From Minisyncoccota bacterium (GTDB lineage: Bacteria; Patescibacteriota; Minisyncoccia; Phycocordibacterales; UBA2100): a stretch of DNA of 25,816 bases. Both the position numbers and the translations under genes were made by a program. The notes under the pieces are model-generated. The model worked only from the letters and a program-made list of their open reading frames with translations, was not told the origin of the DNA and did no database searches. How positions within the stretch are numbered: the first letter of the stretch is position 1; the number at the start of each line of letters is the position of its first letter. The stretch lies in contig DATECE010000090.1 of assembly GCA_036516595.1 (NCBI GenBank), positions 1 through 25,816 of the forward strand, given 5' to 3'. This document shows, one piece after another, positions 2,183 through 14,543 of the stretch.

Positions 2183-3268
2183 ATGATGAAGCACTCCATA
2201 CGAGTAGTTCACGCCCTCTCTACGGCACTCCTCGTCTGCGCTCTTTTTCTTGCACCGCTCGCAGTCTCTGCGCAGGAGTATGAAGGATGGCGCGGCTGGT
2301 TTGGCCGTACGAGCGAGATACAGCAAAAGATACAGGCGCTCCCATCGGTCGCCGTCGCGAGCCTACCCATACCGATACTCTTTGGCGTCGCTCAGAGCAA
2401 CCTCACACACAATTTCGGTGACGCGCGTGACGGTGGCACGCGCACCCACGAAGGACTCGATATCATGGCGCTGCAGGGTACGCCAATCGTGAGTCCCACG
2501 CAGGCGGTGGTCACCCGCGCAGGTACGGGAGGCTCGGAAGGGAATTATGTATACACCGCGGGTCCCGGCGGAGAAACATTTGCGTACATGCACCTCTCCC
2601 GCTTTGGTGAGGGTGCCGTCGTGGGCGCTGTGCTCGCGCGCGGCGACATCATCGGCTACGTGGGCAATACCGGCAACGCCTCCGGCGGCTCCCCGCACCT
2701 GCATTTTGAAATACGAAACAACGGCGCGACGGACCCGTTTCCGCGACTCACGCTCGAATTTACTCTCGCCGAACGCATGGCGTTTCTTACGAAAATTTTG
2801 GCGAACACGTCGGACACATCACTCGCGGGGACGCTCGTCGCCAATTTCCGCTCCGTATTCACGGCGGCGCAATCCCAAGGGATAGCGCTCCCGCCTGCGA
2901 TTGCGAATCTAGTCGGCGGCAATGCACCGACACCACCACTCACCACATCGACAAACACGCAAATAGCAGCACTCCTCGCACAACTACAGGTGCTGCAGGC
3001 ACAGCTCGCGGCGCTACAGGGCACGACACCAACATCGTACACGCGTGACTTACGGCTCGGCTCAACTGGTGCCGATGTGAAAGCGTTGCAAATCTATCTC
3101 AATACTCATGGTTTCGCCGTCGCCGTAAGTGGCGCAGGCTCACTCGGGAGCGAGACGACGTATTTCGGCCCCGCGACGAGAGCAGCGCTCATTCGATTCC
3201 AAGTTGCGAAGGGAATCACGCCGGCCGCAGGCTATTTCGGCCCTATCACCCGCGCCGCTCTCATATAG
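2183..3268 (+). CDS. Secreted M23 family metallopeptidase with C-terminal peptidoglycan-binding domain
   Basis: Signal peptide. M23 motifs HEGLD (HxxxD), YMHL and PHLHFE (HxH). C-terminal DLRLGSTGADVKALQIYLN...YFGPATRAALIRFQ is PG_binding_1-like. Confidence 0.92.
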   Translation: MMKHSIRVVHALSTALLVCALFLAPLAVSAQEYEGWRGWFGRTSEIQQKIQALPSVAVASLPIPILFGVAQSNLTHNFGDARDGGTRTHEGLDIMALQGTPIVSPTQAVVTRAGTGGSEGNYVYTAGPGGETFAYMHLSRFGEGAVVGAVLARGDIIGYVGNTGNASGGSPHLHFEIRNNGATDPFPRLTLEFTLAERMAFLTKILANTSDTSLAGTLVANFRSVFTAAQSQGIALPPAIANLVGGNAPTPPLTTSTNTQIAALLAQLQVLQAQLAALQGTTPTSYTRDLRLGSTGADVKALQIYLNTHGFAVAVSGAGSLGSETTYFGPATRAALIRFQVAKGITPAAGYFGPITRAALI

Positions 3269-3306
3269 TTCGTCGCGCGGCAAAAGGGAATGATATTGTG
3301 TGAGGC

Positions 3307-3813
3307 GTGGACCTGATACAGCTCATAAATCCGGAACATGCAACGGAGGAAGAGGTGGCTCATTACGCTGTCCGCGAAGCCGCGCGTGCCATCGTTCGTG
3401 ATACGGAGGGGTTCATCGCACTCTTGCATGTCACTAAGAAAAATTACTACAAACTCCCCGGCGGCGGGCTCGAGGGCGACGAAGACAAACTGATTGCTCT
3501 GCAGCGCGAGTGCGAAGAGGAGATTGGGTGCAACATCGATGTGCTCGACGAAGTGGGCATGACAATCGAATATCGGAAAATGTTCCAACTCAAACAAATT
3601 TCATATTGTTACTATGCGACGGTGAGAGGGGAGAAAGGCACTCCACATTTTGTGGGGGATGAGATAGACGATGGTTTCGAGGCACTGTGGCTTCCGTTTG
3701 ATAAGGCGCTCGATGTCATGAAAACATGCGAAGCAAACGATTTTGAGGGAAGCGCCTACATCGTCCCTCGCGACATCGCGTTCCTCGAAGCTGCGCAGGA
3801 ACGGCTGAATTAG
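3307..3813 (+). CDS. NUDIX hydrolase
   Basis: Nudix box GGGLEGDEDKLIALQRECEEEIG (GX5EX7REUXEEXG). GTG start. Confidence 0.9.
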   Translation: MDLIQLINPEHATEEEVAHYAVREAARAIVRDTEGFIALLHVTKKNYYKLPGGGLEGDEDKLIALQRECEEEIGCNIDVLDEVGMTIEYRKMFQLKQISYCYYATVRGEKGTPHFVGDEIDDGFEALWLPFDKALDVMKTCEANDFEGSAYIVPRDIAFLEAAQERLN

Positions 3814-3902
3814 CAAATAAGGTTCGAGTCGGATGACGCTTGCCGTGGGAAGGGCACGTGGCATAGTGCGTGCGGGAATAGTCCCACAAGAGAGGTGTCG
3901 CC

Positions 3903-4403
3903 ATGCCGCTCGAGATCGAAAGACGTTTTTTGCTCCCCAAGGCGCCGGCGCATAACCATCCTGACCGCTTGGATCATACCGCGTGGCTCCGGCAGGGGTA
4001 CCTCGTCGTCTCGCCTGAGGGCGCCTTGCGCATCCGCGAAGAAGAGGGCGCCTGTACCCTGACGGCCAAAGGGCAAGGCGAGCTCGCGCACGAAGAGTGC
4101 GAGCTGCCAATCGAATCTGCGGACATGAGCGCACTGCTCTTCCGGCTGGCCGTCGGAACGCCGGTGGAAAAAATCCGCCACTCGTATATCGGTGCGACGT
4201 ACGAATACGTCATCGACGTGTTCGAGGCGCACCTGAAGGGGCTCGTCATGATGGAGATTGAGTTCCCCAGCGAGGAAGCGGCGCACGCGTACGTACTGCC
4301 GGCGTGGGCGTCGGGTGCGGTCGAGGTGACTGGCAACATCGCCTACACCAATGCTTATCTCTCGCAAAAAGGTCTGCCGCAACGCATCAAACCCGATGCC
4401 TGA
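3903..4403 (+). CDS. CYTH domain protein (triphosphate tunnel metalloenzyme / class IV adenylate cyclase-like)
   Basis: N-terminal EIERRF (ExExK/R), plus RQGYL, LRIR, EKIR, IDVF and EIEF motifs. Confidence 0.9.
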   Translation: MPLEIERRFLLPKAPAHNHPDRLDHTAWLRQGYLVVSPEGALRIREEEGACTLTAKGQGELAHEECELPIESADMSALLFRLAVGTPVEKIRHSYIGATYEYVIDVFEAHLKGLVMMEIEFPSEEAAHAYVLPAWASGAVEVTGNIAYTNAYLSQKGLPQRIKPDA

Positions 4404-6111: not shown

Positions 6112-6507
6112 ATGGCAGAAACAAGTACAGCGTCCACCAAAGGCGGATCCGCCTCCGGCGGAAAAAAGCGCACATCACGCGCGAAGAAGTCTGCAGAGGG
6201 CACACACCGCCTTCGTATCCGCGTGCGCGCATACGAGCACGGGGTGCTCGACCGCGCGGTGAAGCAAATCATCGATGTCGCGTCACGTCACAATGCGACC
6301 ATCATCGGCCCCGTACCGCTCCCCATCGATATCAAGAAATACACGGTCAATCGCGCGTCGTTTATCGACAAGGATTCGCGTGAACAGTTCGAGATGCGCA
6401 TCCACAAGCGCATGATAGATATTTTGAATCCGGTCCCCAAGGTGATTGAAGCTCTGACAAATATAGACCTCCCTTCCGGAGTGTCGATAGATGTCAAAAT
6501 GATGTAG
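6112..6507 (+). CDS. rpsJ: 30S ribosomal protein S10, with N-terminal extension
   Basis: RLRIRVRAYEHGVLD...IIGPVPLP...VNRASFIDKDSREQFEMRIHKRMIDI...LPSGVSIDVKM. The ATG at 6112 is preferred over the ORF-track start at 6034. Confidence 0.97.
   Translation: MAETSTASTKGGSASGGKKRTSRAKKSAEGTHRLRIRVRAYEHGVLDRAVKQIIDVASRHNATIIGPVPLPIDIKKYTVNRASFIDKDSREQFEMRIHKRMIDILNPVPKVIEALTNIDLPSGVSIDVKMM
6133..6162. repeat. 30-bp double-hairpin palindromic element, in-frame copy in rpsJ (encodes STKGGSASGG)
   Basis: TCCACCAAAGGCGGATCCGCCTCCGGCGGA, matching the copies in rplC, rplD, rplV and rplW. Confidence 0.85.
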
Positions 6508-6910: not shown

Positions 6911-7038
6911 TAGTTGCGCATGCGCGCAACCGCTTTTCGCTGAAGCACCGCGGTGACGCGCCCTTGCATCCACACTTTTCCCCACTCGCCGCTTGTGCGG
7001 ACACTCTCGTGCGATATAGTTTCTATATTGCGCAACTA
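6911..7038. promoter_or_regulatory. Divergent promoter region with paired TTGCGC(A)A operator-like sites
   Basis: TAGTTGCGCA (6911-6920) is the exact reverse complement of TGCGCAACTA (7029-7038). Local inverted repeat GTTGCGC-atgc-GCGCAAC at 6913-6930. Candidate -10 boxes are CATACT (minus, 6907-6902) and TATAGT (plus, 7015-7020). Confidence 0.45.
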
Positions 7039-7053
7039 CGAAACAGATAGCGT

Positions 7054-7254
7054 ATGATACAAAAGTCGATAAAGATACTCCGTTACTCTGTCATGTGCAC
7101 GGCTGCGTTCCTTGCATCGTTTGTAGTCAATTTCTCGTCACCCGCGCACAATTCTACGGATATCCCGAGCATGTTCGCGCCTATCGTACATGCCGATGCG
7201 CCGACGGGGGACGGCGGTGATGACGGTGATGGCGGTAGCGACGGTTGTCCCTGA
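7054..7254 (+). CDS. Candidate RiPP precursor peptide 1 (hydrophobic leader, HADAP motif, Gly/Asp/Ser/Cys tail)
   Basis: 66 aa: basic N-terminus, hydrophobic stretch, ...IVHADAP-TGDGGDDGDGGSDGCP. It shares HADAP and overall layout with the 14322-14543 peptide next to the SagB gene. Confidence 0.7.
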   Translation: MIQKSIKILRYSVMCTAAFLASFVVNFSSPAHNSTDIPSMFAPIVHADAPTGDGGDDGDGGSDGCP

Positions 7255-7259
7255 ATTGT

Positions 7260-8477
7260 ATGGAAACGCACGACACTCCCGAGAACAACGTATCCGAAGG
7301 CGTGCGCATATGGGCCGCGCGCAAGCGGGAATACACTGCAGTCTTGGTAGTCACTCTGGTGCTCGTTTCGGTGTACCTCGGTTCGGAAGTCGCAACGAGG
7401 CAGAGGGAGCGTGCGAGAGAGGCGAATGTCGCGAATCTCAAGGGGGCGATTGAACGATCGCTCGAGTTGCAGTACCAAGGTGACTTCGGGGCATCGGCGC
7501 AAAACGCAGAGTATGCACTTGCTCTGCTCGATGCGACTTCAAGTCTAGAGGCGCAGCGAACGATAACCGTTCTCGCCAACGCACATATTTGGTCCGCCGA
7601 GCTGGACAAGCACCTTGAAGCTGTGGATCTAGCGAAACAGCAACTACGTGACCTGCCAGGATCCCCTCGAAGTCAGGCATTTATCATAAATCGTCTCATC
7701 GGGTATATGACGGCGGCGATGGAGCCCGAGGTCATCGAGAGGGTGTTCACAGGCGAACCCTTCGCAGAACTCTACGATTCAGCGAGCGTCACGGACTCCA
7801 TTTTCAAGAACTTGGCAGGGGAGTCTCTTTCGCGATACCCCACCTTCCTCGCATATGCGTGCGTCGGCATTTGGCACGCCGAGAAGTTGTTCAAGCATTA
7901 CGATGGCATCGAGACTCTCTCGCAGGAAGAGATGCGCGAGGCTGTCTCGGGAGTGCAAGACGCTATTGCGAAAATGAACGGCATCATAGACGAGGAGTTG
8001 AAAGTAGATATCGTATACAAGCAAACAAGGCAAGCGCAATTCGATTACTATCAAGAGTTCCTCCACGGGGCGCTCGCGCTCACAGACCCAGCGTACCTTA
8101 CTGCGATGCAGGAAGCATACGAGCGTGTGCGTTCTGAGGTCGCGGCACAAAAAAATACCGCGGGCAACACGATAGCGCTCCTTGATACGCGCCTCGTATA
8201 CGCCGATTTCGCCTTCTCCACGTATGTAAACGCCGTCGCAGGCGAAAACCGTGCGAATGACGTACAGAGATCTCTGCAGGAGATGATCGACCTCATGACG
8301 GCGAATCCGGAGGCGCATCAGGGTGGCTTTCTTGCGTTCGTGCGTCAAACCGCGCGGAGCGGTCCGAACGGCACAGAGGGGCACGGACGCTGGTACAGCT
8401 ATGGGCGATTTAAGCGCATGGCAGATTTCTACCCACCGTTTAAAGATTTTCTTAATGCCAACGGATGGGGTCTGTAA
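7260..8477 (+). CDS. Single-pass membrane-anchored alpha-helical (TPR-like) hypothetical protein A, paralog of 14549-15670
   Basis: N-terminal TM (AVLVVTLVLVSVYLG) and helical composition. Colinear motif matches to protein B. Start METHDT at 7260, 5 nt after the peptide-1 stop. Confidence 0.8.
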   Translation: METHDTPENNVSEGVRIWAARKREYTAVLVVTLVLVSVYLGSEVATRQRERAREANVANLKGAIERSLELQYQGDFGASAQNAEYALALLDATSSLEAQRTITVLANAHIWSAELDKHLEAVDLAKQQLRDLPGSPRSQAFIINRLIGYMTAAMEPEVIERVFTGEPFAELYDSASVTDSIFKNLAGESLSRYPTFLAYACVGIWHAEKLFKHYDGIETLSQEEMREAVSGVQDAIAKMNGIIDEELKVDIVYKQTRQAQFDYYQEFLHGALALTDPAYLTAMQEAYERVRSEVAAQKNTAGNTIALLDTRLVYADFAFSTYVNAVAGENRANDVQRSLQEMIDLMTANPEAHQGGFLAFVRQTARSGPNGTEGHGRWYSYGRFKRMADFYPPFKDFLNANGWGL

Positions 8478-8522: not shown

Positions 8523-10268
8523 TCAAATAATTTTCTCGAGGCAGTAGATTTCGTTGGCGTAGGTGCTTAGAAAAAATCGTCCCGTTTTCGCGTTGTGGAA
8601 GACCCGATTTGTGATTCGTTCAGGCACGGTGAAGTAAGAGCGCTCTTTGCCCGTCTGCGGGTCAATCTCTGTGAGTCTGCCAGCGTTCGTGCCGATATAG
8701 AGACTGCCGTCGATGTGCACAGGCGTCGAGAAAATGCGAGCGTTTCCGTGCCAGCGCCACTGTTCGGTGTACGCATTGGCATCGATTGAATATAGATGCT
8801 TATCGAGTGAGGACACGAAGACATTCTCGCCGACGACAAGGGGAGTCGAATACACACCGAAATCGGTCTTGAAGAAACCATTTCGTATGCCGCGACGTCT
8901 ATCGATAAAATGCACCTCCCCGAGCATATTCCCAAAGATGACCTGATCACGTTTCTTGTCATATGCAAAGGAAGCTTTGATGTCGCCGTCGCAAAAACCC
9001 GAGTCGAGCGCGGGACCGGAAGGCGTGTAGCTCTCGTACTTCCATTTCAGCACGCCGCTTTGCGCATCGAAAAGATAAGCTGCACCGTCATTCGAACCGA
9101 TGATTACCTCGCGGTGCTCGCGGATGTAGAGCGGCGAAGAGTGTGTAAGGCTCGGCATAGTGTAACGCCACTTCGCCTCACCGGAATATGCGTCGAGCGC
9201 GATGATGCCGCCGCGCTTCCGCCACAAGCCAAACTCGAGCCCGATGTATACAAGCCCGAGATCATCCGCGACGGTGGGGGACGAGCCGACCCAGTCTGCT
9301 TCGAAAGACACCCAGCGTTTTTTGCCGTTTGTCACATCGAGCGCGTAGATGTTGCCGTCATAGGCGCCGAAATACACCATGTCACCGTAGAGGGCGGGCG
9401 AAGAAAAGATTCCTTTGCCGTGTGGGTGCAGACCCGTCTTGAACTCCCACTCGACGCGACCATCGGCTTGGTTAAGCGCGCGAAAGATTCCGCTGTCGGA
9501 ACCGACATAGAGACGTGTCTCGTCGAACGCGGGTTCCGATTTCGGCACCACGTGAAAATAGCTTGGCGCGGGCGCACTAAATCTCCAGAGCGTTTTATAG
9601 GCCTGTTTTGCGGAGGGAGTATCTTTGCGGGGCAGATTGTTCACTCCGAGCGCCTCTGAGAAGTCATTGAGCTCGAACGCCGAGCGCACCTCGACGCCTT
9701 CTTTTGCGAAGTACTCGTAGTATTCGGTATCTCGGAAACGCACGATGGCCCAGATAGCGGAAACTGTTTTGCCGGATTCTTTCAACACTTCAATTTGACG
9801 GATAAAGCTTCGGCCGCTGTTGAGGATGTCATCCACGAGCACGACGGGACTGTTGTCGGTGGCGTCGCCCTCAACCATTTTCATGAGCCCGGACTTTTTT
9901 CTCGATTTGCGGATGAAAAAACCGTTTGGTTTTCGCGGACCGCCGTGTTTTGCGGATAGGAGCACGAGAGCAGTGGCGAGCGGAATTCCACCAGATTCGA
10001 GACAGCCGATTTGTACGTCGTGATAGCCGTGAAATGTATCCCAAAAAATGGCGGCAGCATCATCAAGAATGTCTATATCGAAGAGTATGTTCCGGAGATC
10101 GAAAAGCCACTTTGATTCTTTTGTGTCGTCGCTTCTACTCACGATCTCCGCATCTGTCCCGCGCACAAAAGCACGCTCAGCAATCGCGCGCTTGATTCTC
10201 TCGAGGCGCTTCAGGCGCTCGCTGCTGTCCATGCGCCCAGTATACTCGTCCATTTCATGCGGAGTCAT
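8523..10268 (-). CDS. Fusion of an orotate-phosphoribosyltransferase-like type I PRTase and a PQQ-like (BamB-type) beta-propeller
   Basis: N-terminal IGCLESGGIPLA, FFIRKSRKKSG and VVLVDDILNSGRS (PRPP loop). C-terminal repeats such as SSPALYGDMVYFGAYDGNIYALDVTNGKKRW and GGIIALDAYSGEAKWRY. Confidence 0.85.
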   Translation of the reverse strand: MTPHEMDEYTGRMDSSERLKRLERIKRAIAERAFVRGTDAEIVSRSDDTKESKWLFDLRNILFDIDILDDAAAIFWDTFHGYHDVQIGCLESGGIPLATALVLLSAKHGGPRKPNGFFIRKSRKKSGLMKMVEGDATDNSPVVLVDDILNSGRSFIRQIEVLKESGKTVSAIWAIVRFRDTEYYEYFAKEGVEVRSAFELNDFSEALGVNNLPRKDTPSAKQAYKTLWRFSAPAPSYFHVVPKSEPAFDETRLYVGSDSGIFRALNQADGRVEWEFKTGLHPHGKGIFSSPALYGDMVYFGAYDGNIYALDVTNGKKRWVSFEADWVGSSPTVADDLGLVYIGLEFGLWRKRGGIIALDAYSGEAKWRYTMPSLTHSSPLYIREHREVIIGSNDGAAYLFDAQSGVLKWKYESYTPSGPALDSGFCDGDIKASFAYDKKRDQVIFGNMLGEVHFIDRRRGIRNGFFKTDFGVYSTPLVVGENVFVSSLDKHLYSIDANAYTEQWRWHGNARIFSTPVHIDGSLYIGTNAGRLTEIDPQTGKERSYFTVPERITNRVFHNAKTGRFFLSTYANEIYCLEKII

Positions 10269-10678: not shown

Positions 10679-11914
10679 TCACTCCCATCGGTCCCCGAAG
10701 AGTCCGAAGCGGTAATCAGGCAAGTCCGATTTGATGTCGCGGAAGGTGCGGTAGTTTTCCGCACAGACAGGATTTTCCCCACAGCGCGCGAGCAAACTCT
10801 CTTCAAAAAGCTGCCCAACGAACTGGAACACGTTGTAGTAGCAGATAGCGCGGCGATTTTTTTCTTCAATGCCGCTGCAATATGGCAGCGGGTCGTCTTT
10901 CAGAAAGGGAAAGAGCGGGATGATGCCGATAGTGCACGATGTTCGATCCTCAAAGAGTGGCAATTCGTCGCAGAGCGCGTGCAAAGCAGGTGCATCGTCA
11001 AGGCGGGTACCGTATGAGAATGATTGGAGACCGTATCCCTCGAAACAGAACGCACGTCGCTCTCCCGAAAGTGCAGTGCATTGTTCCCGCGCGGTGTCTT
11101 TACGCTGAGCAGAATCATCAGTAGCCGCATATGCGGAGGCAAAGTGAAAACACGCGTGACTGTAGCGCATCGGTGCGCTCTCGCAGGGGAAGAAGGTACT
11201 CGCTGTCACAGTGCCGGTCGCGCTTTGAAATGGGGAGAGCGCATCGGTCCAGCCGGTCATCTCCCCTGCGCGCTCCATGTAGACGCCCTGATAGCAGGCT
11301 TCTCGGGCATAACCGCTCGATACGCGTGCACATGTCGCGATTCCTTGTGGATCCTCTCCCTTCACGAGGTAGAGAATGTGACCGATGCCGTGGCAAAGTC
11401 CTGCACTCGAGGCACAATATTTCGATCCGATTTCTTCGATTGTCGCGATGTCCGCGTGGGCGATGTCCTCGTCAGGGTATTCCTCACCGAGTTCCGCGAG
11501 CACGCCGGCGCCGAGCGTACCGTGGAGGCAGGCCGCACGACACGCATTTGAGCACGCGGAAAGCGCGATTTCTAAAGCGCCCGCTTTTTTAAAATTTTCC
11601 TGTCCGATGATATGTCCGATAGCGTGGCATCGGTCGCGTATCGGCGCCGGCGTCGATTCCGCAACCGTATATGCCTGCAATGTCTTGGTGGACATATACG
11701 AAAGCAATTGCGGGATTGTTTCGTGGAGACATGCGGACGTTGTAGCAGGGTCTTCGAGGCACGAAAGCAGCGCTTCGGGCGATGGCGGTGCGGTGAAATA
11801 GGCGTAGAGACGCTCCGAAGTAGAGCCGAGCGCGTACGCCCCCCCAAATACGATGAGTGCGATGGATACTATGTGTATATAGGAGCGAAGCGGCGCATTC
11901 GATACAGCATTCAT
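10679..11914 (-). CDS. Membrane-anchored Cys/His-rich helical-repeat protein (CHxxGH motifs), function unknown
   Basis: N-terminal TM, 20 Cys counted, motifs RCHAIGHIIG, ACLHG, LCHGIGH and ACYQGVYME. TATAAT on the minus strand at 11929-11924 lies just upstream of the ATG. Confidence 0.8.
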   Translation of the reverse strand: MNAVSNAPLRSYIHIVSIALIVFGGAYALGSTSERLYAYFTAPPSPEALLSCLEDPATTSACLHETIPQLLSYMSTKTLQAYTVAESTPAPIRDRCHAIGHIIGQENFKKAGALEIALSACSNACRAACLHGTLGAGVLAELGEEYPDEDIAHADIATIEEIGSKYCASSAGLCHGIGHILYLVKGEDPQGIATCARVSSGYAREACYQGVYMERAGEMTGWTDALSPFQSATGTVTASTFFPCESAPMRYSHACFHFASAYAATDDSAQRKDTAREQCTALSGERRAFCFEGYGLQSFSYGTRLDDAPALHALCDELPLFEDRTSCTIGIIPLFPFLKDDPLPYCSGIEEKNRRAICYYNVFQFVGQLFEESLLARCGENPVCAENYRTFRDIKSDLPDYRFGLFGDRWE

Positions 11915-11962: not shown

Positions 11963-13492
11963 TCAGGGGAAGGGATGAGGCCACGGGACGAAGTGTTCTG
12001 CTGGCGTATAGCCGAGCGTACGCGCGGCTTCTCGTAATCGCGTCGCACCAAGCGCTGGCAGGTGCTCGAACAGGTACAGAGGGATGAGACGCGGAACGAT
12101 GGTCTTTACCACGTGATAACCCAGCTCTCGGAGGACCTCGTGCTGCACTTCGTAGACGTACACTTCGTACCCAGCGCCTTTCTCTTTGAGCTTACCGAGC
12201 ACGTACGCAAGATGCGCCTCCGCCGAATCGTCCACCTGTATTGTGCGCGCAAACGTCTCGATGGACACGGCCCTTCCTTGGAGAAAAAAGGCGAACCGCT
12301 CAAGCATGTCCTTGCCGCGCCAAAGTGAGAGCCGTTCGCTCCGCCCGATTTTCTTGTCGGAAAAAGGTTTGTATTCCTTAGGGAGTCGGAACTGCTCAAG
12401 TTGAAGGGATGTGGTCAAGACTGCGAGCGCTTCGTATCCCGCATGCAGCATATTTCCCTCGGCGTCAATCCCCGCGGACGCGCCCATTGCGAGCACGGGA
12501 TCGTTGGCACGTGGGTCGATTATGACGCACAGAGCGGTAGGGATGCCGATGTCCGAGGTGATGTCGAGAAAATGCGCCTCGAGACCGTATCGCTCTGTAG
12601 CCGCGAGAAACTTGAACAACTCGGTATTTCGAGCGGAGCGCGCATCGATTCGATTCGGCGCGATGCCGTTCAGCCAGTAAATAAGAAAGCCGTCACGCTC
12701 GATGAGTTCGAGCAATCCAGAGAGTACCGCTTCCTTTTTTGTGAAGTGACCGCCCGCCCCACTCGTCGTTGTGTTGAGCAATACGGGCTCTTCCATATCG
12801 CGCGAGAAATCGTAATTCCAAAAGACCATCTGTGCCGGCACATGCACGACACCCCCGTCCATGCGCTCTGCAGTCACCCACGAAAATGGAGAGGAAGGAG
12901 AGACGTGCAAGCGCGGATTCGCCTCCACCTGCCATGGCAAGAACGTACTCTGCTCCGAGACATCGAGTACGGGTGAACCTGCGGCGCGCATTTCTGTACT
13001 CGTCATGCGTGGGAGCTTTTCGTTTCGGTAGAGCGTGAGGAAATGCCGCTCGAGCGCCTCACCGACGGATTTCGACATCGCAGTTTCCACAGAATGCGAG
13101 TGCGAAAATCCACCACCTTTTACATCGAGCCCGTCCGTGTCACGTTCGCGGTTTGTCTCGAGCCCGATTTGCCAGAACTTCGGAAGATCGTTATTGCTCT
13201 TAGCGAACCGGAAGTTCGGCGAGACGACGACGTTCTTTTTTTCTAGATATCGCAAAATCGCTTGCCAATTGAGTGGAACACCACTCGCGATGACCTGTGT
13301 CACGTTGTCCAAGAGGTCGACATTTGACATCTTTCCAGCGAGAAAAAGCCCGAGCCGCTCTTCAATACCGAGAGGATTTTTGAACCTTGAACACGGGCGG
13401 CCAAGCTCGGCGAGGGCCTCTCTTTTCGAGCGGTTGATATACGGTGGAAAGGCGAGAAAAGGCTGGTGCTGCAGCGTTTCTTCGAGGAGCAT
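11963..13492 (-). CDS. ycaO: YcaO-family ATP-dependent cyclodehydratase (azoline-forming type)
   Basis: SKSVGEALER, TTTSGAGGHFTKKEAVLSGLLELIERDGF (YcaO ATP-binding motif) and C-terminal PWPHPFP. Start placed at MLLEETL (13492), because the longer track ORF overlaps the SagB gene on the opposite strand. Confidence 0.95.
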   Translation of the reverse strand: MLLEETLQHQPFLAFPPYINRSKREALAELGRPCSRFKNPLGIEERLGLFLAGKMSNVDLLDNVTQVIASGVPLNWQAILRYLEKKNVVVSPNFRFAKSNNDLPKFWQIGLETNRERDTDGLDVKGGGFSHSHSVETAMSKSVGEALERHFLTLYRNEKLPRMTSTEMRAAGSPVLDVSEQSTFLPWQVEANPRLHVSPSSPFSWVTAERMDGGVVHVPAQMVFWNYDFSRDMEEPVLLNTTTSGAGGHFTKKEAVLSGLLELIERDGFLIYWLNGIAPNRIDARSARNTELFKFLAATERYGLEAHFLDITSDIGIPTALCVIIDPRANDPVLAMGASAGIDAEGNMLHAGYEALAVLTTSLQLEQFRLPKEYKPFSDKKIGRSERLSLWRGKDMLERFAFFLQGRAVSIETFARTIQVDDSAEAHLAYVLGKLKEKGAGYEVYVYEVQHEVLRELGYHVVKTIVPRLIPLYLFEHLPALGATRLREAARTLGYTPAEHFVPWPHPFP

Positions 13493-13551
13493 GCCGGCAG
13501 TATACCCCAAGCGATATTTGCTGACGGTGTGATCGGTTGTACGATGCCGAT
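13493..13551. promoter_or_regulatory. 59-bp back-to-back promoter region for ycaO and the SagB-type gene
   Basis: Minus strand: TATACT (13504-13499), 6 nt before the ycaO ATG. Plus strand: TTGCTG (13518-13523), 16 bp, TACGAT (13540-13545), 6 nt before the ATG at 13552. Confidence 0.5.
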
Positions 13552-14325
13552 ATGTATGTTGATTTCTCGGCGCTCTTCCACGCATCTTCAAAAGATTTGA
13601 ACGACAAGGGGCGTGTTTATATCCCACAAGATGCGAGCGCATGGCCGGACGAATGGAAAACGACCTACTACAAATCATATGCGCGCTCCCCGAAGATCCA
13701 GCTCGAGAAGCCTCGTGCGCTCGGGATGACGTTGGACGATATACTGAAAAAGAGGATTTCGACGAGGTCGTTTGCAGGCACACCGGTCGACCTGAAGGCG
13801 CTCTCAGGACTCCTATTTCACTCATGCGGCATCTCAAACGGAGAAAATCATGAGTGGGGGCGCATGTACCCGTCGGGAGGCGCTCGATTTCCCATCGAGA
13901 TATATCCAATCGTATTTGTCGGAGGAAAAGATATTCCGGCTGGCCTTTACCACTACAATGTGAAAGAGCACGCACTAGACGTTTTATGGAAGCGAGCATT
14001 CTCGAAAAAAGAGATTGACGAAATGTTTGTGTATCCGTGGGTAGAGCATGCGTCATTCGCAATCATCATGACCGCGGTTTTTGGCCGCAACCAGATGAAA
14101 TACGGTGAGCGCGGATACCGCTACGTACTGCTCGAGGCGGGGCACATGAGTGAGAATGTGTATTTGGCGGCGACGGCACTCGGTGTTGGATGCTGTGCAA
14201 TGGGTGGGACGCAGGACAAGCAGATTGAGCGGCTGCTCGACATTGATGGTATTACAGAATCTGTTATTCACAGCTTGGTCCTCGGCGAAGTGGGGTCGGC
14301 AAAACGTGCTATTATTCCCGCATGA
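13552..14325 (+). CDS. SagB/ThcOx-family FMN-dependent azoline dehydrogenase (nitroreductase fold)
   Basis: KKRISTRSF, RMYPSGGARFPIEIY, GLYHYNVKEHAL, MKYGERGYRYVLLEAGHMSENVYLAATALG. The KYGERGYRY segment is typical of azole-forming dehydrogenases. Confidence 0.93.
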   Translation: MYVDFSALFHASSKDLNDKGRVYIPQDASAWPDEWKTTYYKSYARSPKIQLEKPRALGMTLDDILKKRISTRSFAGTPVDLKALSGLLFHSCGISNGENHEWGRMYPSGGARFPIEIYPIVFVGGKDIPAGLYHYNVKEHALDVLWKRAFSKKEIDEMFVYPWVEHASFAIIMTAVFGRNQMKYGERGYRYVLLEAGHMSENVYLAATALGVGCCAMGGTQDKQIERLLDIDGITESVIHSLVLGEVGSAKRAIIPA

Positions 14326-14543
14326 TGGTGCACATGCAAGAGTCGTCACGACGCACCGTTCGCTACGTGCTGTACGGGATTGTCGCGGTCCTCGGCTTTA
14401 TCATCGCGTTCTTCGGCTCTGTGCCGCGCAGCGGCTCCCAATTGTTCGGTGAAGATGCTTCGGGTGCAAATACGGCGCACGCGGACGCGCCCGATGCTGG
14501 CAGCTCCCCCGGCACAGGAGGTACGGGAAGTACAGGAAGCTAG
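14322..14543 (+). CDS. Candidate RiPP precursor peptide 2 (TM leader, AHADAP motif, Gly/Ser/Thr core)
   Basis: ATGA overlap with the SagB stop. TM YVLYGIVAVLGFIIAFFG, then ...TAHADAP-DAGSSPGTGGTGSTGS. The start could also be the Met at 14325 or 14334. Confidence 0.75.
   Translation: MMVHMQESSRRTVRYVLYGIVAVLGFIIAFFGSVPRSGSQLFGEDASGANTAHADAPDAGSSPGTGGTGSTGS

Follow-up and report, generated by a model that had tools for sequence, protein, structure and literature searches.

A small acidic peptide gene with a TPR-like partner in the rpsJ–rplC island of a Minisyncoccota bacterium, and its relation to the YcaO and SagB enzymes of the same island

The stretch of DNA analysed here (25,816 nucleotides of a Minisyncoccota bacterium, contig DATECE010000090.1; hereafter the window) encodes a YcaO cyclodehydratase, a SagB-type dehydrogenase and two small peptides with a common HADAP motif, of which one, peptide 2, is encoded beside the enzymes and the other, peptide 1, apart from them. 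Is peptide 1 a second precursor for the enzyme pair, as a first-pass annotation of the window proposed, or does it serve another purpose? Genome mining counts YcaO/SagB loci of CPR bacteria as antibiotic-like azole-peptide clusters, and an organism with one peptide beside YcaO and one apart from it offers a clean test. Peptide 1 proved to be a real and most likely functional small gene. Serving as a substrate of the nearby YcaO is probably not its main role, because its lineage also occurs in related bacteria that do not have the azole-forming enzymes.

The peptide 1 gene and its island

The forward-strand frame at 7054–7254 is a 66-codon gene. Residues 1–12 of the product are basic, the most hydrophobic 17-residue stretch (residues 13–29) has a mean hydropathy of 1.65, and a linker of 15 residues leads from there to the sequence VHADAP. 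The core that follows, TGDGGDDGDGGSDGCP, is 16 residues long and consists of seven Gly, five Asp (31%) and one each of Thr, Ser, Cys and Pro, with Cys-Pro at the C-terminus; Ser62 and Cys65 are each preceded by Gly. Translation thus bears out both the layout described by the first-pass annotation, which peptide 2 (14322–14543) shares, and its description of the core as Asp-rich with a single Gly-Ser and a single Gly-Cys. The TGA stop codon occupies positions 7252–7254, and the gene for A405, a membrane-anchored protein, starts 5 nt further, at 7260. The 66-aa gene was called independently in 22 public contigs from several samples, and the encoded protein is identical in all of them.

The window belongs to a genome assembly (G000) of 628 kb in 99 contigs that is 74% complete. 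Two checks proposed in the first-pass annotation, a search of this genome for further HADAP frames and an alignment of the two peptides, were both carried out. A six-frame scan of the 628 kb returned peptide 1, peptide 2 and one 20-codon junk frame only. The leaders of the two peptides align with a BLASTP E-value of 0.002 in a single pairwise comparison, and word-indexed protein searches with both peptides as queries returned only the peptides themselves or near copies.

Both peptides lie in a 12.5 kb island between rpsJ and rplC (Table 1), in which B373 is followed by a TPR protein, a 679-aa protein and a 122-aa secreted protein. Peptide 1 had been placed about 6.3 kb from the enzymes. This distance is right for the start of YcaO (13492) or of SagB (13552), but the 3′ end of YcaO is 4.7 kb away, and peptide 1 is located within the same island as the enzymes, not outside it.

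Table 1. Features of the rpsJ–rplC island in the window, with promoter-like boxes of related loci
Feature	Position	Strand	Basis or remark
rpsJ	6112–6507
ArsR-family winged-helix regulator, 100 aa	6593–6895	−	Pfam HTH_5, E 5e-16; 100-aa gene called in public contigs
Operator-like palindromes, ArsR–peptide 1 intergenic region	7011–7044	.	inverted repeats; TTGCGCAA at 7028–7035
Peptide 1 leader, residues 1–50	7054–7203	+	basic N-terminus, hydrophobic segment 13–29, 15-residue linker, VHADAP junction
Peptide 1 core and stop codon	7204–7254	+	16 residues, Cys-Pro end
A405, membrane-anchored TPR-like superhelix partner	7260–8477	+	AlphaFold model, orthology
Phosphoribosyltransferase/PQQ-type beta-propeller fusion	8523–10268	−	Pfam and NCBIfam
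X411, membrane-anchored, no family assignment	10679–11914	−	Pfam/NCBIfam without match
YcaO cyclodehydratase, 509 aa	11963–13492	−	PF02624, E 4e-45
SagB-type FMN dehydrogenase, 257 aa	13552–14325	+	TIGR03605, 142.6 bits
Peptide 2, Ser/Thr/Gly core, YcaO/SagB-adjacent	14322–14543	+	leader profile, E 1.9e-7
B373, TPR-like partner of peptide 2	14549–15670	+	distant paralog of A405
rplC	19009–19653
TAnAnT boxes of family peptide genes	L016:6455–6475, L018:8789–8809, L020:6121–6140, L022:3487–3506
TAnAnT boxes of family peptide genes	L023:11413–11432, L025:9141–9160, L065:6826–6843, L060:1669–1686

YcaO scores 155 bits against PF02624 and 189 bits against TIGR03604, which is below the 219-bit cut-off of the latter model, while SagB lies well above the 78.4-bit cut-off of TIGR03605 and carries PF00881 in public gene calls; its 3′ end overlaps the start of peptide 2. 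An E1-like or McbB-type partner was not recognised at the window locus. Two candidate annotations were rejected. A 699-codon minus-strand ORF (11963–14062), which could be taken for a “fused” YcaO, is an over-extension whose 5′ third runs antisense to SagB; YcaO has its tabulated length in public gene calls and its relatives align only from residue ~194 of the long ORF, so that annotation as a 699-aa fused cyclodehydratase is wrong. A DNA-pattern scan of the genome contigs with the 699-codon ORF gave no match. X411, considered as a possible dehydrogenase, has no Pfam or NCBIfam family and carries an N-terminal membrane anchor, and SagB is encoded at another position. Atlas look-ups for X411 and the 679-aa protein returned unnamed clusters only (Minisyncoccota clusters in the case of X411). 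Homologs of X411 occur in some related islands, and those of the phosphoribosyltransferase (PRTase)-propeller fusion, at 40–53% identity, in nearly every one, including the YcaO-less islands of G078, G063 and G034.

A peptide family and its Cys-Pro-tailed branch

YcaO homologs of the same genus were located and their surroundings were then searched for peptide genes. Nearly every YcaO island in the genus contains one to three small genes that follow one plan: a basic N-terminus, a hydrophobic segment, a variable linker of about 15–23 residues, an [AV]-x-Ala-Asp/Glu-[AV]-Pro junction, in which only Ala and Asp are invariant, and a low-complexity Gly-rich tail that is different in every genome. 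The family comprises ~55 members from ~45 genomes, and behind each peptide gene, at a gap of −4 to +29 nt, stands a member of the A405/B373 family. Peptide 1 has every element of this layout, and its gap to A405 falls within the family range.

Among 116 genomes of the genus, the leader profile detects peptides in 44 and PF02624 detects YcaO in 46; 38 genomes have both, 6 have the peptide alone, 8 have YcaO alone and the remaining 64 have neither. It should be noted that the profile used for this count contained both window peptides, which makes the window genome positive by construction, and that one of the six peptide-only genomes, G033, represents a spurious match. Taken as a whole, the family goes together with YcaO/SagB. 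In this respect the first-pass annotation, which saw a conserved recognition motif joined to a hypervariable core, had recognised a real family that tracks the enzymes.

The membership of peptide 1 in this family appears less direct than that of peptide 2. When a leader profile built from 13 relatives, with the window sequences excluded, was run against 12,196 frames of the genome, peptide 2 was recovered with high significance (Table 1), whereas peptide 1 obtained an E-value of 0.62. A phmmer search with peptide 1 against 1.8 billion representatives identified a single outside relative, P0005 (91 aa; E 6.5e-5), which aligns over the leader, has a nearly identical junction and is followed by its next gene after 5 nt. 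P0005 in turn matches the family leader profile with an E-value of 5e-4, and the sequence link between peptide 1 and the family is thus an indirect one that passes through P0005. Taken by its sequence, peptide 1 is best viewed as a divergent member. What settles its membership is synteny, since orthologs of A405 always stand behind a family peptide.

Close A405 orthologs (40–71% identity) were found in G078, in G108, in G034, whose locus is the same DNA as locus L097, and in the metagenome contigs L099 and L100. Directly upstream of every one of them lies a family peptide gene whose core ends in Cys-Pro. The cores of the six modules consist of an acidic (Gly-Gly-Asp/Glu)n run and end in Asp-Cys-Pro or Gly-Cys-Pro; five of these cores contain no Cys other than the terminal one. 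A maximum-likelihood tree built from 36 partner proteins places all six partners of these peptides in one clade with 100/100 support. By its core and its partner, peptide 1 belongs to a separate sub-lineage that is defined by an acidic core, a Cys-Pro end and a partner clade of its own. Literature searches turned up nothing on this system beyond the CPR clusters of Sharrar et al. (2020), and, to our knowledge, neither the Cys-Pro-tail/A405/ArsR sub-lineage nor its occurrence independent of YcaO has been described before. At the rpsJ side of locus L097, public gene calls contain a 503-aa product (L097:47–1558) in which integrase (rve) domains and ribosomal protein S10 are combined; the product may reflect insertion of an IS element on that side of the island, or else a read-through call.

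Does peptide 1 depend on YcaO and SagB?

The distribution of the Cys-Pro-tail module provides the most direct answer to this question. The module is present in G078, a single contig that is 97% complete, and in G034, which is 98% complete; neither the family model nor a protein query matched a YcaO in these two genomes, and a protein query for SagB had no match in G078. Two of the four genus genomes with the module carry YcaO and two do not, which is no more than the genus background (46/116, 40%) and differs from the 38/44 seen for the peptide family as a whole; the sample is small, and its six modules, four from genomes of the genus, are related. Where YcaO is absent from the genome, the island has lost only YcaO and SagB; the PRTase-propeller is still there, as are the TPR proteins and the other anchored proteins. 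Four rpsJ–rplC islands without YcaO or SagB were seen, L062 (G078), L065 (G063), L064 (G081) and L068 (G094). They retain the PRTase-propeller, peptide, TPR partner, TPR264, Y679-like and Z122-like genes, and their peptide cores are poly-Asp or (Gly-Glu)n, with a run of 17 Asp in G063.

Core composition is the second line of evidence. The 41 cores encoded within 3 kb of a YcaO gene have a median of 4 Cys, with 12.8% Cys and 14% Asp+Glu, whereas six cores from YcaO-less genomes have 0–1 Cys, with 1.6% Cys and 29% Asp+Glu (Mann-Whitney p 3e-4, a value that is overstated because the genomes are related). With its single Cys and its high Asp content, the core of peptide 1 falls in the YcaO-less group. 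The leader points in the same direction: against a profile of YcaO-adjacent leaders, peptide 1 reaches 9.9 bits, as compared with 11.5 bits for other peptides of YcaO-less genomes, 18 bits for the Cys-Pro-tail group and a median of 36 bits for 33 independent peptides whose genomes have YcaO.

The alternative that fares best against these data is the proposal of the first-pass annotation that one enzyme pair modifies two different cores. Peptide 1 would then be a second RiPP precursor of YcaO/SagB, its leader would be recognised like that of peptide 2, and Thr51, Ser62 and Cys65 would become azol(in)es before export. Both a cyclodehydratase (PF02624) and a SagB-type dehydrogenase (TIGR03605) are indeed encoded in the same island, and peptides and YcaO do co-occur throughout the family, but the lineage of peptide 1 is found in two near-complete genomes that have no YcaO, and G078, the one of them searched for SagB, has no SagB either. 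The junction motif is likewise common to peptides encoded within 100 nt of YcaO in many genomes, but the low leader score of peptide 1 speaks against its recognition in the same manner. In microcin B17, sites with Gly before Ser or Cys are favoured; nevertheless, only 3 of the 16 core residues of peptide 1 (one Cys, one Ser and one Thr) could be cyclised, against an average of 33% Cys+Ser+Thr in YcaO-adjacent cores. Moreover, the terminal Cys-Pro is conserved in YcaO-less genomes also, which implies that the Cys is kept for another reason. The G108 ortholog of peptide 1, which lies 11 kb from a YcaO gene, has six Cys in GGGDC repeats, and this enrichment suggests that tailoring may take place where the enzymes exist. 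On balance, modification of peptide 1 by YcaO is possible, but we consider it unlikely, and the lineage does not depend on it. Of the original proposal, the association of the family with YcaO/SagB is supported and its extension to peptide 1 is not.

A less probable alternative, to which we give little credence, is that peptide 1 is matured by another activity universal to the island, that of the PRTase-propeller or of X411, so that it would represent a new kind of modified peptide for which YcaO is an accessory. The PRTase-propeller gene is found in nearly all islands irrespective of YcaO, is the immediate neighbour of four of the six Cys-Pro-tail modules and has no recognisable signal peptide by reading, so that a cytoplasmic product could act before export; in G078, however, the ArsR–peptide–A405 module is ~30 kb away from it, and we know of no chemistry on peptides for such a fusion. 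Lastly, the idea that the peptide 1 frame is decaying or fortuitous and yields no product could draw on a core that is the shortest of its lineage (16 residues against 32–43), on the weak hydrophobic segment and on the non-significant match of peptide 1 alone to the family leader profile, but it is highly improbable for a frame that is intact and identical across 22 contigs from several samples and that retains the junction, the acidic tail, the Cys-Pro end, the close coupling to an intact partner and the ArsR neighbour.

Export, partner, regulation and a possible function

The explanation that we favour, with moderate confidence, is that peptide 1 is a signal-anchored, exported acidic pre-peptide that works with a TPR partner and has a core role independent of azole formation. 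The way its charges are distributed, together with its hydrophobic segment, points to N-in insertion or export. The positively charged N-terminus would stay inside the cell, the short hydrophobic segment would enter the membrane by the general secretion route, and the remainder would come to lie outside. The [AV]-x-Ala | Asp-[AV]-Pro junction is a likely cut or recognition site, since Ala-x-Ala is the usual signal-peptidase site in this organism.

Cleavage there by signal peptidase is plausible but not secure. Peptide 1 has an n-region, an h-region and a Val-His-Ala site; in Sec-type signal peptides the Ala-x-Ala site stands 3–7 residues after the h-region, but in peptide 1 this distance is 15. 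Ordinary signal peptides of the window genome end in AHA, AYA or ANA followed by Gln, 3–6 residues past the hydrophobic core, as compared with about 15–23 residues in the peptide family, and Asp-Ala-Pro on the far side of the junction is conserved as well; it is these two features that make cleavage uncertain. HADAP is not simply a generic signal-peptidase context, which was part of the outcome that the first-pass annotation had named as fatal to its proposal: only Ala-x-Ala is generic in the genome, unlike the complete motif with its long linker. The 122-aa secreted protein of the island (18520–18888) has a classical signal peptide that ends AHA|ETD, so an acidic residue after Ala-His-Ala is nothing unusual at a cleavage site in this organism.

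The exposed part of peptide 1 would be a short acidic Gly/Asp tail with a Cys-Pro end, which A405, co-made from the adjacent gene, probably holds or presents. The AlphaFold model of A405 (pLDDT 91) consists of one long transmembrane or stalk helix followed by an all-helical repeat domain. No solved structure in the PDB matches the model at E ≤ 0.001; the best hits are TPR proteins of the LGN/Pins type (TM up to ~0.5), which bind extended peptides. Several members of the A405/B373 family have Pfam TPR matches, and it is mainly the all-helical model together with these matches that suggests a TPR-like nature for A405. Direct BLASTP between A405 and B373 was not significant, and their relationship is seen in shared homologs and in one tree. 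A disulfide between the terminal Cys and the partner, also considered, is unlikely, as the partners have 0–1 Cys and these are not conserved.

Expression of the peptide 1–A405 pair is probably controlled by the divergent ArsR-type repressor via a conserved palindrome. Orthologs of this regulator (76–96% identity) adjoin four other Cys-Pro-tail modules, that is, the adjacency is found in five of the six. A block around TTGCGCAA is shared by the ArsR–peptide intergenic regions of the window genome, of G108 (exactly) and of G078 (with one mismatch), which makes the intergenic palindrome a candidate binding site. An 80%-identical ArsR ortholog of G083 (L091:1468–1824) lies just after rpsL/rpsG and is divergent from a gene for a 370-aa secreted Gly-rich protein, with no small peptide, so the regulator is not exclusive to the peptide module.

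The first-pass annotation also suggested that the Asp-rich core might bind metal, which would fit the neighbouring ArsR. The adjacency holds, but this regulator lends the metal argument no support. The window ArsR resembles ArsR/SmtB metal-sensing repressors in its HTH_5 winged helix, in its divergence from the likely target and in the palindrome between the two, but by reading of its sequence (P0006) it has neither the alpha3 Cys-x-Cys nor the alpha5 Asp/His/His/Glu ligand set; its single Cys is near the C-terminus and its sole His is in the recognition helix. For this reason no metal can be assigned, and composition is what is left to support the metal argument. The tail may recall a Ca-binding “D-x-C-P” element like that of thrombospondin type 3 (TSP3); when 20 family peptides were searched against Pfam, no TSP3 model matched and nothing convincing was found for metallothioneins. 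That the Asp-rich tail binds cations is a guess from composition, and cation or thiol chemistry of the tail would likewise be speculative.

Known systems offer partial parallels. In microcin B17, the McbA precursor is processed by the McbBCD synthetase at Ser and Cys residues that follow Gly, and it has a soluble 26-residue leader and many Ser/Cys sites. The window locus is similar in its Gly-rich core with Ser or Cys after Gly and in its YcaO-type cyclodehydratase and FMN dehydrogenase, but peptide 1 differs by its signal-anchor leader, by having three candidate sites and by its Asp-rich core. Sec-dependent bacteriocins of the enterocin P type have short c-regions and folded, unmodified mature peptides. 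Peptide 1 shares with them the small pre-peptide, the basic N-terminus, the hydrophobic segment, the Ala-x-Ala junction and a predicted export by the general route; it differs in the distant junction of its family, in its low-complexity acidic tail and in its co-encoded TPR partner. CPR bacteria themselves provide a third parallel in the 110 predicted LAP/TOMM YcaO/nitroreductase clusters described in 93 CPR genomes (Sharrar et al. 2020, mBio, PMC7298704). As in the window, these place YcaO by a nitroreductase-type dehydrogenase and a small Ser/Cys-bearing peptide gene in Parcubacteria-type genomes; however, a membrane-anchored leader, a TPR partner gene and acidic Cys-Pro-tailed peptides were not described there, and the Cys-Pro-tail lineage also occurs without the enzymes.

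If the favoured explanation of an exported pre-peptide with a TPR partner is correct, YcaO/SagB would be an optional tailoring add-on, mainly for the Cys-rich peptides encoded beside these enzymes. The peptide and partner genes would constitute an older, self-standing system that works on where the enzymes are absent, and the sub-lineage with an acidic tail, a terminal Cys-Pro, its own TPR clade and an ArsR neighbour is not tied to YcaO/SagB. The question to ask would then no longer be what toxin the locus produces but what function it provides in the envelope of these tiny symbionts. A tentative extension, which we hold with less confidence than the favoured explanation itself, is that the rpsJ–rplC island is an undescribed envelope system of ultra-small bacteria in which the anchored low-complexity peptide, the TPR partner, the PRTase-propeller and further anchored proteins are universal and YcaO/SagB optional. 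The acidic Cys-Pro peptides could then be a separate class under ArsR-type control, with a role in cation or thiol chemistry at the surface or as targets of a new modification that does not involve YcaO.

Further observations concern the family at large. Peptide 1 has no TAnAnT box at the spacing seen in other family genes, its best −10 candidate being TATATT at 7024–7029. In most family peptide genes such a box (TATACT, GATACT, GATAAT or TATAAT) stands ~6 nt before the ATG with no Shine-Dalgarno sequence (Table 1), which suggests leaderless mRNAs. Locus L022 contains tandem peptide genes on the minus strand (3133–3486 and 3584–3940) with 100% identical leaders and different Cys/Gly cores, a recent duplication with divergence confined to the core. 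Finally, many peptides paired with B373-type partners (L016, L025, L040, L042, L050, L052 and L054) end in Gly-Lys, a second conserved C-terminal signature that is distinct from the Cys-Pro end.
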